Of a DNA stretch of 64,000 bases, positions 2,466 to 57,265 are shown piece after piece. Position numbers and translations under genes: made by a program. Origin of the DNA: Octopus vulgaris (Eukaryota); contig OX597832.1 in NCBI GenBank assembly GCA_951406725.2, positions 65,534,001-65,598,000 of the forward strand, read 5' to 3'. Each line of letters starts with the position of its first letter. Within the stretch, counting starts at the first letter, position 1. Under the pieces are notes generated by a model, which did no database searches, was not told the DNA's origin, and saw only the letters and a list, made by a program, of their open reading frames with translations.

Positions 2466-3441
2466 ACAACAAACAAAGTGAGGAGAGATCCCCGTCAAAT
2501 GTAAATAACGTAGATAATTCCTAATTTCTTAAATATAGAACTGTATATATATATATATATATATTTGCATAAAAATATATTTCGGTTTTACATTTTTTAT
2601 TATGTTCCTGATATTTGGTGGATATCATTGATGAAGATCAGAATGGCGACCAAGTACTTCGGCAGACAACCGTCATTGAATTTGTGGATCTGCTTAATTA
2701 TTCTCATAATGGCCCTCTTGAGATAAAAAAATATACATTCCATATGCGTATATATAAATTCACACATAGAAACATGGCTCAAATTTCGACAGAGGTCTAT
2801 GTTCCTCTGAGTTAAGAGAGCCCTCTCAACACATACTACCCTTTTATAATGCTAAGTAATAGCGTTTGGAATGTAGGATCATTTTGTAAGGAAACATGTA
2901 AGCGCCACGTGCGTCAGTATACTACAGGAGATAAAGGAATTTTCCAACACAGAGGAATTTTAGAGAAGCACAATTCCATTCCCTGTGGAAGTTTGCTGAC
3001 CAACATTTCCCATCTTCTAAAGGGTGTTTACTCGATTCCCTAAGCTTTCTTCACAGCCCTCCTGCGTTCGAGAATGTCTCCTATTTTCTGTTCAATGCTG
3101 ACAACTCGACGCTGAGAAGTTTCTTTACAATACATATGCATACCTGAAGATTGCGCTAAAGCACGAGAGAAGTTGAAAATCACTGCCTGGCATGCTTTCA
3201 TCAAATGAAATTAATAGTAGCCTATAAAAATATATGTTGAGTTTATTACATTGTATTTACCTCTCACTAAATGCAGTACTTAGTAGATCCCAGAACAATA
3301 CACTAAATATGCATGTGTGTATATTTACATGTGCATGGATGCATGGATGCATATATTGTATTGCAAACAACTTATAAGCGCAGTGTTGTCGGTATTCTAT
3401 TGAGGAATTATAAAATAATATATATTAAATAATATTTTTTA

Positions 3442-4312
3442 ATGCAGTTTAATGCGGAAAAATTCCAATCCCTGCGCTGCCAGCGTCCAAAACAGAATAT
3501 ACAACTTACAGGGTACACTATTCCACAGGGGATTACAATCCCAGAGCGTAAAACAGTGAGGTACCTGGGTATCAACAGGAGTGATGATATCTCTTTCCGA
3601 GTGCATATTAGCAGGACAGCCACAAAGTGCAGACGACTGGCTGGCTGTATCCTGAGAACGTTCAGGACCAGAAAGAAGGAAACCATGATGGTCCTCTGGA
3701 GGAAATTTATCCTCAGCCGCCTGGACTACTGCTCCCAGCTATGGTCACCCAACAGTGCAAAATTAAAAGCAGACCTTGAAGCAATCCAGCGAAGCTTCAC
3801 AAAAAAGAACGTATCGTTACAACAGCTCAGCTACAGGGAAAATCTGAAACATCAAAGACTGTACTCCCTGGAGCGAAGGTGGGAGACTTATTCAGTAATA
3901 TATATCTGGAAGATCCTGGAAGGAGTTGTGCCAAATTTTGTCATTGTAAGCTACACCAATGCCAGAACACGTCAACAATGCACAGTGTCACAGATCCCAG
4001 CAATGCCATCGCGCGTCAGGGACAGTTATTACAACAATCTGGGTTTCAGGGGCCTATAGCTTTTTAATATTCCCCTAAAGACCCTGAGGGACCTACACAA
4101 AGTGGATGTGGTCGTTTTCAAATCCAAACTGGACCTCTTCCTGTCGAGAGTCCCAGATAAACCTAACTCGCGACAAGAGGTGCATATGAGGATAGCGACA
4201 TCAACCTCCCTTATTTACGAAATGCCATATAGTAGAGGAGGCTCTCAATAAGAACAGTGTAGCAAAACGGTGGTGCCCCAGCATGGCCGCAACTCTAATC
4301 TGAAAATACAAA
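3442..4312 (+). mobile_element. CR1/L2-group LINE 3' fragment (end of RT, C-terminal domain, 3' UTR)
   Basis: ORF 3442-4059: MQFNAEKFQ..YLGI..ILRTF..SRLDYCSQLWSP..LEAIQRSFTK..LYSLERR, typical of a CR1-group ORF2 C-terminus; 5'-truncated. Confidence 0.85.
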
Positions 4313-7874: not shown

Positions 7875-7924
<50 letters not shown>

Positions 7925-8144
7925 TCAATATAGGGTGGCAAAAAATTTCGTAGAATTCTTTGGCCACCAGCGGCCTAGTGGGAAAAAAATTAAATAGTCA
8001 TAGACCATTTATAAATTCAACAGCAAAATCAAGGAACGGCCATAATAGGCCATTCACCCACTAGAAATAACAGCCAAAGCTTCAACCGCAAAACAACATT
8101 AATTCCGCAAACAAGGAGAAAATTAAAAAAACATTTACCCTGTA

Positions 8145-8251
8145 GTTTTTTATACGATGCACCGTTTCATCTATTGTTTAATGGTAAACTAACCTGATTA
8201 AATTAAATCAAGCTAGTCTTCCATAGGCCGATAGATTCGTCAGTAAAGAAC
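8145..8251 (-). ncRNA. Type I hammerhead ribozyme (one stem I mismatch)
   Basis: Reverse complement: GTTCTTTA-CTGACGA-ATCTAT...ATAGAT-GAAA-CGGTGCATC-GTA-TAAAAAAC. Confidence 0.85.
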
Positions 8252-8628
8252 GGCCAGATCGGAGCAGATATTTACACGAGGCACTTCTATCACTGTCTCG
8301 GCAATATCTGACCTAAAATTTTCAAATCATCGCACTAGCGCCAAATTTATCGGCAGCAAATATAAGCCGCCGATTCCATTACGGAATTAACCAGAAAATT
8401 CATAATTAATCAATATAGGGTGGCAAAAAATTTCGTAGAATTCTTTTGCCACCAGCGGCCTAGTGGGAAAAAATTAAATAGTCATAGACCATTTATAAAT
8501 TCAACAGCAAAATCAAGGAACGGCCATAATAGGCCATTCACCCACTAGAAATAACAGCCAAAGCTTCAACCGCAAAACAACATTAATTCCGCAAACCAGG
8601 AGAAAATTAAAAAAACATTTACCCTGTA

Positions 8629-8735
8629 GTTCTTTATACGATGCACCGTTTCATCTATTGTTTAATGGTAAACTAACCTGATTAAATTAAATCAAGCTAG
8701 TCTTCCATAGGCCGATAGATTCGTCAGTAAAGAAC
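8629..8735 (-). ncRNA. Type I hammerhead ribozyme
   Basis: Intact core CUGACGA/GAAA/GUA and perfect 8 bp stem I. Confidence 0.9.
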
Positions 8736-9096
8736 GGCTAGATCGGAGCAGATATTTACACGAGGCATTTCTATCACTGTCTCGGCAATATCTGACCTAA
8801 AATTTTCAAATCATCGCACTCGCGCCAAATTTATCGGCAGCAAATATAAGCCGCCGATTCCATTACGGAATTAACCAGAAAATTCATAATTAATCAATAT
8901 AGGGTGGCAAAAAATTTCGTAGAATTCTTTTGCCACCAGCGGCCTAGTGGGAAAAAATTAAATAGTCATAGACCATTTATAAATTCAACAGCAAAATCAT
9001 ATAAATTCAACAGTGCGATGATTTGAAAATTTTAGGTAAGATATTGCCGAGACAGTGATAGAAGTGCCTCGTGTAAATATCTGCTCCGATCTGGCC

Positions 9097-9203
9097 GTTC
9101 TTTACTGACGAATCTATCGGCCTATGGAAGACTAGCTTGATTTAATTTAATCAGGTTAGTTTACCATTAAACAATAGATGAAACGGTGCATCGTATAAAG
9201 AAC
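9097..9203 (+). ncRNA. Type I hammerhead ribozyme
   Basis: GTTCTTTA(9097)-CTGACGA(9105-9111)-ATCTAT..ATAGAT-GAAA(9180-9183)-CGGTGCATC-GTA(9193-9195)-TAAAGAAC; predicted cleavage after 9195. Confidence 0.92.
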
Positions 9204-9324
9204 TACAGGGTAAATGTTTTTTTAATTTTCTCCTGGTTTGCGGAATTAATGTTGTTTTGCGGTTGAAGCTTTGGCTGTTATTTCTAGTGGGTGAATGGCC
9301 TATTATGGCCGTTCCTTGATTTTG

Positions 9325-9385
<61 letters not shown>

Positions 9386-24316: not shown

Positions 24317-25093
24317 CAGTAGTTTTATTTTTTATAGCGTGGTTTCACTTCACTACCGAGCGCAGCTCTGTGTGCCTTGGGTATGTGCTGTGATTTGTTG
24401 TGATGCTCTGATGGTTATTGTATGGAAAGTGTTCTGCGTAGGATGTGTGCAGTGCTAGTAGTGCAATTTTCTGTATGTTATATGTGTTTGTAAGTCGTGG
24501 TGTATTTGTTATGTATTTGTCTGAATATTTTTTTATCATGCCTAATGTACCTACTATGATAGGAATTGTTTCTGTTTTCAGATTCCACATTCTGGTTACC
24601 TCTATTTCCAGGTCTTTGTATTTTGAGAGTTTCTCCATTTCTTTTAGAGAAACGTTGTCATCTGCCGGTATTGATACATCAATTAGAAAGCATTTTTTTC
24701 TTCATGATCCCTGACAACTATATCTGGTCTGTTGGCCTTAATTTCTCGATCTGTGTGTATCGGCATATCCCAGAGTATGGTTGCTTTCTCGTTTTTCTGT
24801 GACCTTTTCTGGTGTGTGCATATACCATCTTTTTTTTGTTGTTATTCCATAATGTTGGCTTAGCTTCCAGTGTATGTAGGTTCCAACTCCGTCATGTCTG
24901 TGAATATATTCCTTCTTAGCCAGGACTGGGCAGCCAGACATAATATGATTTATTGTTTCTTGTCCATCTCCACATATTCTGCAGTTACTTGTTATATTTC
25001 TTTTCATTACATGTTTTTGGTAATTTCTGGTGGGGAGGCTTTGGTCTTCTTCTGCAATTAAAGATCCCTCTGTCTCTGATTTGAGTCCTGAGC
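24317..25093 (-). mobile_element. R4/Dong-type LINE family A, 5'-truncated, frameshifted
   Basis: SSGLKSETEG..DQSLPTRNYQ..CRICG..ETINHIMSGC (CCHC) ..RHD..PD..KYKDL; flanked by (TTA)n and (TTC)n. Confidence 0.9.
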
Positions 25094-25125
25094 TTCTTCT
25101 TCTTCTTCTTCTTCTTCTTCTTCTT

Positions 25126-48179: not shown

Positions 48180-49118
48180 CATTATTGATTTACACAAAAG
48201 AACTTGCCAACATATATATTTTTCATAATGTTTTTTCCTCTTTAGTCGCAAAATACTTTGTGAAAATATCGCTATCTTCTTCAATAATACGAACGACCAA
48301 CCACTCTTCAAATAATGCTTACATCGTCAGCCAAAAATATACTCCTGCGATACTATGATATAAACAGTGTTTGTTATTGTATTCAAATATTTGTTTGCCC
48401 TGCTTGCGTATTATATATCAGATAACATTGTTTTATTTTTCATTAGCATCCCAAACCAGGAGCAAATATTTAGTTATAAGAATATATGTGAACATATATT
48501 CCGACACAGACACACAGACACACACACAGACACACATACACACACACACACAAACACACACACACATTTATATATGATGAATCTGACAAAGATGTATATT
48601 TTACAGAGAGTCTCCAAGCAAACTTTTAGGCCCATTCATAGATCATAAATATATAGCTAGATAGTTCAACTTACCGTATATATCTATCTGTTACTTGTTT
48701 CAGTCATTTTACTGCGGCGATGCTGTGGCACCGCCTTGATGGGTATTTTAGTAGACTATTCAACACCAGAGCGTACTTTTTACTTGTATTATTCTATCGA
48801 TCTGTCTTGCCAGACCATCAGGGTACGAGGCCATGGTAGCTGCCGTGAGGGACAAACCCAGACACAAATACACACGGACATAAATATATAAACACACACA
48901 CACACACACGCACACACACATATATATATACGTATGTATAAATATATATATACACATATACAATATATAAATATAAATATATATATGTCTATATATCAAC
49001 AATAAAGGAACGGCCATAATAGGCCATTCACCCACTAGAAATAACAGCCAAAGCTTCAACCGCAAATAAAAGTTAATTCAGTAAACCAGGAGAAAATTTT
49101 AAAAACATTTACCCTGTA

Positions 49119-49225
49119 ATTTCTTATACGATATACCGTTTCATCTGCTGATTAATGGTAAACTAACCTGATTAAATTAAACCAAGCCAATCTTCCACAG
49201 GCCCTCAGATTCTTCAGTAAGAAAT
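49119..49225 (-). ncRNA. Type I hammerhead ribozyme
   Basis: Reverse complement: ATTTCTTA-CTGAAGA-ATCTG..CAGAT-GAAA-CGGTATATC-GTA-TAAGAAAT. Confidence 0.9.
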
Positions 49226-49613
49226 AGCCCAAGACGGAACAGATATTTTCACGAGGCATTTCCGACGTTGCCAAGTTAATATCTGACCTAAAATTTTCAA
49301 ATCGTCGCACTCGCGCCAAATTTATCGGCAGCAAATAAATATAAGCCGTCGATTCCATTACGGAATTAACCAGAAAATTCATAATTAATCAATATAGGGT
49401 GGCAAAAAAAAAATTTTGTAGAATTCTTTTGCCACCAGCGGCCTAGTAGGAAAAAATTAAAATAGTCAAAGACCATTTTTAAGTTCAACATCAACAATAA
49501 AGGAACGGCCATAATAGGCCATTCACCCACTAGAAATAACAGCCAAAGCTTCAACCGCAAATAAAAGTTAATTCAGTAAACCAGGAGAAAATTTAAAAAA
49601 CATTTACCCTGTA

Positions 49614-49720
49614 ATTTCTTATACGATATACCGTTTCATCTGCTGATTAATGGTAAACTAACCTGATTAAATTAAACCAAGCCAATCTTCCACAGGCCCT
49701 CAGATTCTTCAGTAAGAAAT
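49614..49720 (-). ncRNA. Type I hammerhead ribozyme
   Basis: Same motif as 49119-49225. Confidence 0.9.
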
Positions 49721-50464
49721 AGCCCAAGACGGAACAGATATTTTCACGAGGCATTTCCGACGTTGCCAAGTTAATATCTGACCTAAAATTTTCAAATCGT
49801 CGCACTCGCGCCAAATTTATCGGCAGCAAATAAATATAAGCCGTCGATTCCATTACGGAATTAACCAGAAAATTCATAATTAATCAATATAGGGTGGCAA
49901 AAAAAAATTTTGTAGAATTCTTTTGCCACCAGCGGCCTAGTAGGAAAAAATTAAAATAGTCAAAGACCATTTTTAAGTTCGACATCAACAATCTGTGGAA
50001 GATTGGCTTGGTTTAATTTAATCAGGTTAGTTTACCATTAATCAGCAGATGAAACGGTATATCGTATAAGAAATTACAGGGTAAATGTTTTTTAAATTTT
50101 CTCCTGGTTTACTGAATTAACTTTTATTTGCGGTTGAAGCTTTGGCTGTTATTTCTAGTGGGTGAATGGCCTATTATGGCCGTTCCTTTATTGTTGATGT
50201 TGAACTTAAAAATGGTCTTTGACTATTTTAATTTTTTCCTACTAGGCCGCTGGTGGCAAAAGAATTCTACAAATTTTTTTTTTTTTGCCACCCTATATTG
50301 ATTAATTATGAATTTTCTGGTTAATTCCGTAATGGAATCGACGGCTTATATTTATTTGCTGCCGATAAATTTGGCGCGAGTGCGACGATTTGAAAATTTT
50401 AGGTCAGATATTAACTTGGCAACGTCGGAAATGCCTCGTGAAAATATCTGTTCCGTCTTGGGCT

Positions 50465-50571
50465 ATTTCTTACTGAAGAATCTGAGGGCCTGTGGAAGAT
50501 TGGCTTGGTTTAATTTAATCAGGTTAGTTTACCATTAATCAGCAGATGAAACGGTATATCGTATAAGAAAT
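50465..50571 (+). ncRNA. Type I hammerhead ribozyme
   Basis: CTGAAGA 50473-50479, GAAA 50548-50551, GTA 50561-50563, stem I ATTTCTTA/TAAGAAAT. Confidence 0.92.
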
Positions 50572-50958
50572 TACAGGGTAAATGTTTTTTAAATGTTCTC
50601 CTGGTTTACTGAATTAACTTTTATTTGCGGTTGAAGCTTTGGCTGTTATTTCTAGTGGGTGAATGGCCTATTATGGCCGTTCCTTTATTGTTGATGTTGA
50701 ACTTAAAAATGGTCTTTGACTATTTTAATTTTTTCCTACTAGGCCGCTGGTGGCAAAAGAATTCTACAAAATTTTTTTTTGCCACCCTATATTGATTAAT
50801 TATGAATTTTCTGGTTAATTCCGTAATGGAATCGACGGCTTATATTTATTTGCTGCCGATAAATTTGGCGCGAGTGCGACGATTTGAAAATTTTAGGTCA
50901 GATATTAACTTGGCAACGTCGGAAATGCCTCGTGAAAATATCTGTTCCGTCTTGGGCT

Positions 50959-51065
50959 ATTTCTTACTGAAGAATCTGAGGGCCTGTGGAAGATTGGCTT
51001 GGTTTAATTTAATCAGGTTAGTTTACCATTAATCAGCAGATGAAACGGTATATCGTATAAGAAAT
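50959..51065 (+). ncRNA. Type I hammerhead ribozyme
   Basis: Same motif; GTA at 51055-51057. Confidence 0.92.
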
Positions 51066-51882
51066 TACAGGGTAAATGTTTTTTAAATTTTCTCCTGGTT
51101 TACTGAATTAACTTTTATTTGCGGTTGAAGCTTTGGCTGTTATTTCTAGTGGGTGAATGGCCTATTATGGCCGTTCCTTTATTGTTAATGTTGAACTTAA
51201 AAATGGTCTTTGACTATTTTAATTTTTTCCTACTAGGCCGCTGGTGGCAAAAGAATTCTACAAAATTTTTTTTTTTTTTGCCACCCTATATTGATTAATT
51301 ATATATGTCTATATATATATACATACATACATACGCACACACACAAACACGCATACACACACACACATGTATATGTTCAAATAGATACAGTAGCAAAAAA
51401 CTAAAAATAAATTCATACTCACCGTTAGATATGACAGAGAATATGATGCTCGGATGAAAGATATAATATCCTATATCAAATGACGGTATATACACGATTC
51501 ATAGCAAAACGCCATTCATAATTTCGGAGCTATGTGAAATTTCACACAAATCTACTTCGAAAAGCACCAAACAGCTGATTGAAAGAGTCACTGCGTTTAA
51601 CGGAAATTCTAATTATATTTTTGTTTGTCGCCAACATCTTATTGAACTAATTACAAACTAATTGTAGGAGACAACTTTACATTGTCTAAACGCTCCATCT
51701 TTGCCTTTTGTAATTCATAGTATGTCGCGTCTTCATCCTCCATTCCGTAATTGTACAGGAAGCTGCACACATATACACAAACGCACAAATACACACATAC
51801 AAACACACACACATAGAGATATATCGATAGATATCGCTCTAACGTGGTATATACATACATACATACATATATATATATATAT

Positions 51883-56380: not shown

Positions 56381-56536
56381 ATGTGACCACCATATGTGAC
56401 CACCATATCGCGCACATATGGTTGTGATGCATGTGTCTGGTGCACCCTTATCAGATGGGTAGCCATGATAGGTATATTAGGCTTCATATAATTGTAACCC
56501 AGTGTCACTTTGATGGCATGCACTGCTCTCTCACAC
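56381..56536 (+). mobile_element. Element 'E' short 3' fragment
   Basis: Matches ~27200-27342; small ATGTGACCACCAT duplication at the 5' junction. Confidence 0.75.
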
Positions 56537-56552
56537 AATAATAATAATAATA

Positions 56553-57265
56553 AATTACCAAAAACATGTAACGAAAAGAAATATTACAAGTAACTGCAGA
56601 ATATGTGGAGATGGACAAGAAACAATAAATCATATTATCTCTAGCTGCCCAGTCCTGGCTAAGAAGGAATATATTCACAGATATGACAGAGTTGGAACCT
56701 ACATACATTGGAAGCTATGCCAACATTATGGAATAACAACAGAAAAAAGATGGTATAGGCACACACCAGAAAAGGTCACAGAAAATGAGAAAGCAACCAT
56801 ACTCTGGGATATGCCGATACACACAGATAGAGAAATTGAGGCCAACAGACCAGATATAGTTGTCAGAGATCATGAAGGAAAAAAATGCTTTCTAATTGAT
56901 GTATCAATACCGGCAGATGACAACGTGTCTCTAAAAGAAATGGAGAAACTCTCAAAATACAAAGACCTGGAAATAGAGGTAACTAGAATGTGGAATCTGA
57001 AAACAGAAACAATTCCTATCATAGTAGGTGCATTAGGCATGATAAAAAAAATATTCAGACAAATACATAACAAAAACACCAGGACTTACAAACACATATA
57101 ACATACAGAAAATTGCACTACTAGGCATTGCACACATCCTACGCAGAAGACTTTCCATACAATAACCATCAGAGCATCACAACAAATCACAGCACATACC
57201 CAAGGCACAGAGAGCTGCGCTCGGTAGTGAAGTGAAAGCACGCTATAAAAATAAAGCTACTGAAT
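56553..57265 (+). mobile_element. R4/Dong-type LINE family A, 3' fragment
   Basis: NYQKHV..CRICG..ETINHIISSC..ANRPD..KYKDL; ends CTACTG+(AAT)n. Confidence 0.9.

Follow-up and report, generated by a model that had tools for sequence, protein, structure and literature searches.

How does a non-coding repeat of ~490 nt, with a hammerhead ribozyme in every unit, copy itself into an animal genome? The question is raised by two loci, A and B, in a 64,000-nt stretch of the Octopus vulgaris genome (contig OX597832.1; this whole stretch is called the window here). Our reading, to which we give a probability of roughly 0.7, is that the repeat is a non-autonomous, non-coding retrozyme parasitising the RT/GIY-YIG protein of a Penelope-like element (PLE). 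Each locus is an insertion in (TA)n made of two inverted arms, whose fixed 3' ends face outward (Table 1), an architecture absent from the preliminary description of this DNA. Monomers measure 494-497 nt at locus B and ~484 nt at locus A, with ~87% identity between the loci.

Table 1. Parts of the two insertions, in positions of the window. CUGA, position of the CUGA of the ribozyme core.
Feature	Position	Strand	Description
Locus B left arm	48995..49992	-	5'-truncated multimer beginning at monomer position 124; two cut crossings; 3' end is the short end E130 (monomer position ~132), facing outward into (TA)n
Locus B right arm	49993..51302	+	Begins at monomer position 421; three cut crossings; 3' end is the long end E240 (position ~240), facing outward into (TA)n
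Locus B 5'/5' inversion junction	49992/49993		
Cut-to-cut monomer	50564..51057	+	494 nt, non-coding; 36% G+C; longest ATG frame 76 codons; circular fold z = -4.0 (vs 40 shuffles)
Type I hammerhead	50461..50575	+	CUGA 50473; cut after GUA at 50563; 8-bp stem I; 5-bp stem II plus 18-bp distal hairpin; stem III weak, loop palindromic
Type I hammerhead	50955..51069	+	CUGA 50967; cut after 51057
Type I hammerhead	49610..49724	-	CUGA 49712; cut at 49622
Type I hammerhead	49115..49229	-	CUGA 49217; cut at 49127
Hairpin	50661..50682	+	Monomer positions 98-119; loop CC-UAUUAU-GG; lies 11-13 nt before the short end; older families O and P have the same loop on a replaced stem; candidate for RT binding
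Tail between the two fixed ends	50696..50803	+	~108 nt
Hairpin within the locus B tail	50749-50786		Immediately precedes the long end
Apparent target-site duplication, left copy	48980..48996		12-17 bp, interrupted TA tract
Apparent target-site duplication, right copy	51300..51316		Matches the left copy
Locus A left arm	7917..8999	-	Subfamily of 484 nt; its long end E240 lies in (TA)n at 7917; hammerheads with CUGA 8727 (cut 8637) and CUGA 8243 (cut 8153, stem I mismatch)
Locus A junction	~9000-9011		Short templated insert
Locus A right arm	9012..9327	+	Begins at monomer position ~310; short end in (TA)n at ~9327; hammerhead with CUGA 9105, cut after 9195

The window contains seven type I cores of the form CUGAnGA...GAAA...GUA, set in the three-helix architecture, open at helix I and with a CUGAnGA / GAAA / NUH core, that defines the type I hammerhead. 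All seven have 68 nt from CUGAnGA to GAAA, made up of 5-6 bp of stem II and a long hairpin, and the position of loop II is taken by an internal loop plus this hairpin. A strict descriptor returns six matches, against none in each of 20 dinucleotide shuffles. Complete hammerheads at both loci, as first described, are therefore confirmed for six cores, the seventh being the mismatched one at 8243, and the seven full copies reported at that time come down to three cut-to-cut units with complete cores on both sides, one of which is bounded by the mismatched copy (8153 cut). An Rfam search of the window produced no hammerhead match at the gathering score or at E<=10.

Comparison of loci A and B reveals two-sided changes in stem I (3 pairs) and in the outermost pair of stem II. 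Stem III, in which the palindromic loop alone differs, has none, so that the compensatory change once claimed for all helices does not extend to it. Variation confined to the free core position likewise describes the difference between the two loci, but not the family, in which the base preceding the cut is also A (315/355 junctions) or C (25/355). Pairing is kept in 98.2% of 1,120 cells taken from 32 distinct ribozyme variants; older families, ~57-65% identical, retain the ribozyme, the hairpin and both end positions, with the same fold built on largely different stem sequences. Together with the concentration of 5' ends at the cut site described below, this supports the proposal that the subfamilies are under selection for cleavage. 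Covariation is found at four pairs through few independent events, yet this count does not exceed that of shuffles (254/500). In the monomer, stem III is barely formed (pair probability 0.02-0.08), and the intermolecular duplex of the palindromic stem III has fold energies of -13.6 and -17.5 kcal/mol.

The family comprises about 1,000 genomic insertions in (TA)n, and exact ribozyme matches number 1,424, against 0 for the control. An insertion consists of two head-to-head, 5'-truncated arms that end ~130 nt and ~240 nt after the cut; both arms are present in 99 of the 130 parsed insertions. The two ends are paired one of each kind in 88 of these 99, with an atypical end in the other 11 and no homotypic pair, and among loci not selected by their ends every one of the 64 typed pairs is heterotypic. 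(TA)n adjoins 213/216 typed ends. Target duplication is visible in 4/88 insertions (control mean 0.8, max 3), in a scan that is weak because pure TA hides duplications. The arms meet through microhomology or short inserts, and tandem units, each with its type I hammerhead, extend over up to ten cut crossings per arm. A class of short 130+240 insertions without a ribozyme is also present. Inverted arms and TA targets are known from Tc1/mariner-type MITEs, and their combination here with some local tandem duplication would suit a MITE, a foldback or a satellite acting at the DNA level, with the arms as terminal inverted repeats. This explanation is largely excluded by the ~108-nt difference between the ends, by arm lengths and junctions that are different in every copy, and by internal ends that concentrate at an RNA cleavage site.

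The same arrangement is seen in coding elements of this genome. In a young autonomous RT+GIY-YIG PLE, 7/7 inverted pairs combine one long end, 181-191 nt after its own ribozyme cut, with one short end at 142-143 nt (one at 83), and the tail measures ~40 nt compared with ~108 nt in the Octopus retrozyme. In a second family the two ends lie 40 nt from each other. The back-to-back arms and the two fixed starts argue that a Penelope-type copying enzyme is borrowed, and we hold it very probable that the retrozyme is moved by PLE-type machinery. In the mechanism that we propose, arrays would be transcribed to multimers and then cleaved by the hammerheads, probably as dimers through the palindromic stem III, a mode put forward because of the fold energies and of PMC4209133. 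The PLE protein would bind the region 100-240 nt past the cut, nick the two strands of the (TA)n target and begin reverse transcription from two internal sites of one RNA, ~130 at one nick and ~240 at the other. The pairing of the two starts is observed; their position on a single RNA molecule is what we infer from it. On linear cut RNA both enzymes would run off near the cut and leave the short insertions without a ribozyme. On a template continuous over the cut, presumably a ligated monomer circle in most cases and sometimes an uncut multimer, they would continue for up to ten units. The two same-polarity cDNAs would then be joined head-to-head through microhomology or short inserts. Insertion in vitro did not require ribozyme cleavage (PMC11167929).

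Coding PLEs normally give 5'-truncated, inverted and tailed insertions (PMC8557442; the young PLE above), and retrozymes are related to pLTRs (10.64898/2026.07.22.740005). Both points would also suit remnants of the pLTRs of a single coding PLE, truncated and lacking an independent non-coding cycle, as would the scoring of 150 of the 6,136 GIY-YIG candidates. This search, over ~10 PLE families, found no ORF-bearing partner related in sequence; young intact RT+GIY-YIG PLE families are present in the same genome. PLE proteins of 781 and 811 aa are encoded at loci L091 and L257. The GIY-YIG loci L061-L102, F9 (L257) and the L271-L274 family show neither homology to nor fusion with the monomer, and neither do twelve family-P loci. 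A 57-nt perfect match at L063 was rejected as a coding partner, being a short Octopus-retrozyme insertion beside another PLE. Identity with an autonomous PLE was likewise discarded, with no RT + GIY-YIG ORF between pLTRs. The preliminary description had allowed that all copies might be merely pLTRs of an already described Penelope element, but in the sample 0/210 monomer loci are joined to an ORF. PLE coding fragments occur near the monomer at 10/210 loci, all of them 157-1,308 nt away and 8 separated by a TA tract. Upstream, the arms enter more 484-494-nt units and never coding sequence, and the same is true at the loci of families O and P that were examined. Remnants of a coding element are thus an improbable source.

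The 5' ends of the arms are concentrated just downstream of the predicted cut, and jointly so in both arms. In the end-ascertained set (C1), 20 of the 66 arms that reach positions 1-40 stop there, against 34/514 in other 40-nt bins (P=1.4e-7) and 2/30 on later passes over the identical sequence (P=0.01). Both arms stop at the cut in 8 insertions, one arm in 4 and neither in 23 (P=7e-5). AT-rich microhomology (positions 18-35) was considered as the cause of the excess and rejected, as later passes show an effect of at most ~2-fold. We read the joint excess as a mark that cleavage in vivo, and one RNA serving both arms, have left in the genome. On the strength of these genomic ends, hammerhead cleavage at the predicted site in vivo is likely, and we are a little more confident that the same RNA templates both arms of an insertion.

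Sequence variants across the arms provide insights on whether this RNA is a circle or a multimer. Cut crossings are exact in 340/355 cases, the remaining 15 being point or 1-2 nt changes. Over the 22,746 bases compared, the arms share no minor variant in register, where ~55 would be expected if heterogeneity were all template-borne, although the power of this comparison is low if source arrays are very young. Homopolymer lengths agree no more often in register (42/83 comparisons) than out of it (121/285). Twenty-one variants private to one of 57 arrays are each fixed in both its arms, which speaks for a common template of the arms. Exact junctions without in-register shared variants favour repeated reading of one monomer, and we lean slightly towards a circle as the main source of the multimers. 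Of 59 insertions, 12 have another locus nearer to one arm than the partner arm is, and 22 are ties, which counts against the proposed reading.

The alternative retains two-site PLE priming and restricts it to linear templates (cut monomers and partly uncut multimers), with circles as by-products and long arrays formed by multimer copying and later unequal crossing-over. Later passes stop at the cut in 16/166 cases compared with 108/2,445 elsewhere (P=0.007), and at one insertion (L187) both arms end at the cut after two passes; these stops fit linear multimers and count against the circle as sole source. Thirty minor variants are shared, most of them within a single arm (L108, L110, L208), which indicates that some multimers grew by later duplication. 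A stem III as weak as the one modelled would let many sites escape cleavage, and unprocessed RNA served as the principal substrate in PMC11167929. Linear templates alone are harder to reconcile with the missing in-register substitutions, the homopolymer lengths and the variants fixed over all units of both arms. Arrays should, moreover, become shorter from one generation to the next through random 5' truncation, but 6-10 units are present in very young copies. We regard a purely linear route as a real possibility, though not one that we expect to hold. The data as a whole suggest a single RNA, possibly a circle, copied from two sites simultaneously. Its most specific form, which we advance tentatively and at slightly less than even odds, is twin rolling-circle target-primed reverse transcription on a single circle of ~490 nt produced by the ribozyme. 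A dimeric Penelope-type RT would use the two nicked strands as primers at two fixed circle sites, and the two enzymes would chase each other around the circle by strand displacement to yield the head-to-head multimer pair.

A circle could also belong to a viroid-like RNA with RNA-to-RNA replication, the genomic copies being occasional fossils. Circular folds are compact (z -4.0 to -6.2), and the fixation of variants within arrays implies a bottleneck at the monomer. The predicted fold, however, is branched instead of a rod, the descriptor scan of the window places every match in the sense of the monomer and none antisense to it, and ~1,000 genomic templates with retrotransposition marks suffice as a source. 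This origin is very improbable, and the RNA replicon of the preliminary description gives way to copies that all bear Penelope-type marks of DNA integration. The sequence also occurs in other organisms, but no sequencing run that contains it is recorded as RNA. In four contig sets examined, X1 has a contig of 523 nt that wraps by 494, and X20 a contig that wraps too; tandem DNA would look identical, the RNA origin of their source runs is guessed or unrecorded, and they are not taken as evidence.

The Octopus family is a non-LTR retrozyme: it is tandem, non-coding, dispersed, multicopy and low in G+C (30-37%), with longest stop-free frames of 78 (monomer B), 60 (A) and 51 (O) codons. A tRNA scan found none; a sigma-70 promoter scan stayed at chance level and is a method not applicable to an animal genome. 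Because this class is already known, "new replicon" was an overstatement. Neither this family nor strict end pairing is the subject of any paper in the literature searched, which lay outside Repbase, Dfam and most subscription papers, and the family may already be catalogued. How retrozymes re-enter the genome and how PLE tails and inverted repeats form were left open in PMC7229834, PMC8557442, PMC11167929 and the 2026 preprint. The ~1,000 insertions offer one countable dataset that records RT starts, RNA 5' ends and ribozyme-junction crossings; the evidence for retrozyme use of PLE machinery is mechanistic, not phylogenetic, and includes a per-event rule for the two starts. A defined 490-nt template becomes usable for in vitro circle-templated integration. 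Were the twin rolling circle true, its one-short-one-long rule would explain PLE tails and inverted pLTRs generally, and the ORF-less Octopus RNA would be a minimal substrate for reconstitution.

The metazoan non-LTR retrozymes described by Cervera and de la Pena in 2020 (PMC7229834) are likewise low-G+C, non-coding tandem units with one type I hammerhead each and no LTR/PBS/PPT, and PLEs were suggested there as the likely mobiliser of their circular templates. RNA circles were shown for them, whereas the Octopus family is known here from genomic DNA. Its unit of 465-494 nt, first called unusually long, exceeds their ~170-400 nt, but lies within the 51-972 bp of Li, Clavereau and Pollet (bioRxiv 10.64898/2026.07.22.740005); its stem II is extended to 68 nt. 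Fixed-end, head-to-head two-armed insertions distinguish the Octopus family, and the word "inverted" is absent from the main text of PMC7229834. A palindrome-capped, unstable helix III and an intermolecular duplex strong by fold energy are shared with dimeric hammerheads (PMC4209133; for the palindromic loop III also the axolotl retrozymes of PMC7229834). In contrast to those of PMC4209133, the Octopus helix III is modelled as nominally 4 bp, and helix II with a long distal hairpin. Li, Clavereau and Pollet reach the same conclusion, that retrozymes are non-autonomous PLE derivatives, from co-occurrence and pLTR homology in vertebrates, while ours comes from the insertion signature; unlike in their study, no homologous coding PLE was found among the sampled families.

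Closest in their ends are the EN+ PLEs (PMC8557442) and PAc, with its two internal RT starts (PMC11167929), which have two fixed 3' ends past a hammerhead, an inverted 5'-truncated arm, AT-rich targets and little homology at the short start. The Octopus family differs in having no ORF and in its ~108-nt tail, which far exceeds the 30-40 nt known from PLEs and speaks against the proposed PLE mode. It shows the 5'-end excess at the cut, whereas no PAc reads were found to end there (PMC11167929). In those studies the tail is optional or at one end, and strict short-plus-long pairing per insertion is quantified here. The retrozyme class itself has been described before; the novelty lies in the insertion signature.

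All seven hammerhead cores placed in the window by the preliminary description are present. Six of them pass a strict three-helix descriptor that gives 0 matches in 20 shuffles, and the seventh has a mismatch in stem I. Both ~125-nt ribozyme regions fold more stably than shuffles (z of -3.2 and -4.9). An Rfam search of the window did not recover these hammerheads, probably on account of their 68-nt stem II region. The earlier claim that all helices change compensatorily is not confirmed: among 32 distinct variants with at least two copies each (out of 52 variants at 103 loci), three pairs of stem I and one of stem II are changed on both sides, and none of stem III. Pairing is kept in 98.2% of 1,120 cells, and the distal hairpin of stem II, with one-sided changes only, is still 99.7% paired. 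Covarying pairs are no more numerous than in shuffles (254/500), whereas the paired cells and the covariation score exceed them (0/500), for sequences that are related to one another. In the predicted fold of the monomer stem III hardly forms (pair probability 0.02–0.08), and its palindrome is predicted to give a strong intermolecular duplex, a combination that corresponds to the dimeric mode described in the accessible text of PMC4209133. In five sublineages (L155, L171, L207, L215 and L219) a mismatch at the first stem II pair, beside the core, has become fixed in most of the units; either it is tolerated or these templates are dead on arrival.

Features of the window (positions on the forward strand)
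Feature	Position	Description
Tandem repeat	1533–1814	41 bp, 6.9 copies, 97% matches
208-aa frame	3433–4059	presumably resembles the C-terminal part of LINE ORF2
Locus A	7917–9327	two-armed, ~484-nt monomers
Non-LTR retrotransposon 3' fragment	24738–25100	
Non-LTR retrotransposon 3' fragment	28846–29295	
Non-LTR retrotransposon 3' fragment	30561–31300	
Non-LTR retrotransposon 3' fragment	34221–34750	
Locus B	48995–51302	two-armed, ~494-nt monomers
Tail	50694–50803	monomer positions 131–240; two hairpins, about 25 and 38 nt
Non-LTR retrotransposon 3' fragment	56514–57101	

The non-LTR fragments carry a CCHC motif and an RPD endonuclease-like C-terminus, and each adjoins long (TAA)n tracts; we take them to resemble R4/Dong-type elements.

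Loci A and B each consist of two arms with a 5'-to-5' junction, inside (TA)n. At both, the 3' ends of the two arms lie at about 130 and about 240, counted from the ribozyme cut (the short and the long end, with the tail between them). In the assembly (2.8 Gb, 227 contigs), exact patterns, each with a control of 0, find 945 short ends, 1,424 GUA-subfamily ribozymes and, on the forward strand, 602 long ends, so that ~1,000 insertions is a lower bound; the reverse-strand count of long ends, 1,683, includes overlapping matches. We parsed 130 insertions, with two complex ones (L174 and L209) put aside. Ninety-nine are two-armed; the remaining 31 rows are one-armed, one being a fragment of the older family O and some (L110, L128, L137) having a second arm below BLAST-detectable length. 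A short end is paired with a long one in 88 of the 99, 11 have an atypical end and none is homotypic. When the 40 loci selected by end patterns are left out, the typed pairs are heterotypic in 64/64; an equal and independent choice on each strand would make half of them homotypic. TA repeats adjoin 213 of 216 typed ends. Among 77 arm junctions, 43 overlap (41 of them by 1–6 nt), 6 are blunt and 28 contain inserts. Locus B has a 12–17-bp target duplication, and such duplications are visible in 4/88 insertions (control mean 0.8). A bolder reading, to which we give a probability of about 0.45, is a twin rolling circle, in which the reverse transcriptase (RT) of a Penelope-like element (PLE) would prime both nicked strands at two fixed sites of one ~490-nt circle.

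The 5' ends bear on the form of the template. We used all 51 long ends listed for positions 1–119 Mb of one contig (50 usable, L174 dropped). Of the arms reaching positions 1–40, 20/66 stop there, compared with 34/514 in other bins (P=1.4e-7); on later passes through the identical sequence only 2/30 do (P=0.01). In a larger, length-biased set the difference between first and later passes is not significant (25/151 and 16/166, P=0.09), and later-pass stops at the cut exceed other bins (P=0.007). Of 35 arm pairs, 8 have both arms ending at the cut, 4 have one and 23 have neither (P=7e-5). We read this excess as linear templates with the ribozyme cut as 5' end, each serving both arms; AT-rich microhomology common to these sites may contribute.

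A circle as template of the multimeric arrays is slightly favored. Passages across the cut junction are exact in 340/355 cases, the other 15 carrying minor alterations close by, a pattern that speaks against imprecise jumps between templates. The 57 arrays contain 24 variants that are confined, within the sample, to a single array and fixed there, 21 of them across both arms; there are also 211 singletons, and 30 variants common to a subset of units, mostly inside one arm. Minor variants shared in register between arms number 0 in 22,746 compared bases, against ~55 expected had all the heterogeneity come from the template, and no effect of register is seen in homopolymer lengths. Both observations favor a single monomer being read again and again, as the Discussion of PMC7229834 proposes; the in-register test has low power if the sources are young. 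Against the circle, later-pass stops and L187 are compatible with linear multimers, L108, L110 and L208 indicate later duplication or template change, and the two arms of one array are strictly each other's nearest relatives in just 25/59 cases (22 ties, 12 not). At L108, L110, L115, L183, L188 and L191, units of one arm that are not neighbors carry an identical minor base change; it could stem from duplication of blocks of units, from gene conversion, from damage to or modification of a base in the template, or from polishing of the assembly.

Two older families, O and P (L224–L242 and L259–L270, units of ~465–470 nt), keep the type I ribozyme, extended stem II and palindromic loop III, with stems that differ in sequence. 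The 465-nt unit of O is 57% identical to B by global alignment and 60–65% locally. The hairpin before the short end is kept in both, its CC-UA..-GG loop unchanged and its stem replaced, and their ends lie at about 137–159 and 233–248 nt after the cut in 20 of 21 listed, the other at 258. Exact O/P ribozymes left in the genome number 200, and related sequence occurs in sequencing runs of five other organisms. The core of O is mostly UUGAUGA (U3 opposite G8), with a 2-bp stem III and a CAUG palindrome.

The genome holds intact young RT+GIY-YIG families of 781 and 811 aa, which we take to be Neptune-like by their Cys-rich linker (a label partly from PMC8557442). The 811-aa family (L257; L243–L256) is very young, with two ORFs, many identical copies and 26 identical top matches. 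Seven opposite-strand pairs were picked from the match list, their contiguity judged from coordinates with one middle retrieved; in 7/7 a long end is combined with a short one downstream of the family's own minimal ribozyme, at ~183 and ~142 nt in six and ~184 and 83 in one. In the 781-aa family two 3' ends are separated by 40 nt. Its copies (L091, L101, L102) are 99.4–99.5% identical, with a separate upstream ORF and a minimal U3/A8 hammerhead in the pLTR; the 5' end of L101 coincides with the cut site of its own ribozyme. Another PLE family, which is older (L271–L274), is rich in pyrimidines in its 3' region, with a short UUGAAGA hammerhead close to the 3' end, and is unrelated to the monomer. 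No sequence shared with the monomer was seen in the 781-aa, 811-aa or other PLE families among the 150 of 6,136 GIY-YIG candidates scored. Minus its two hairpins the tail has ~45 unpaired nt, near the 40-nt tail of coding PLEs; one may speculate that the long tail of the retrozyme imitates the short PLE tail.

A literature search, with the supplements of the cited papers, Repbase and Dfam outside its scope, found no description of a ~108-nt tail or strict one-short-one-long pairing, of a 5'-end excess at the ribozyme cut, or of this family. The link between retrozymes and PLEs has already been argued from co-occurrence and pLTR homology, in the available part of 10.64898/2026.07.22.740005. The family, known here from DNA, qualifies at the DNA level as a non-LTR retrozyme, and its insertion architecture is the PLE signature: the accessible text of PMC8557442 describes PLEs in partial tandem, with one copy inverted and truncated at its 5' end, a tail of 30–40 bp and (TA)n targets, and that of PMC11167929 a PLE protein that nicks and extends both strands, reverse transcription beginning at two internal sites of the RNA, which delimit the tail. 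The retrozyme family behaves as a SINE-like parasite of a PLE.
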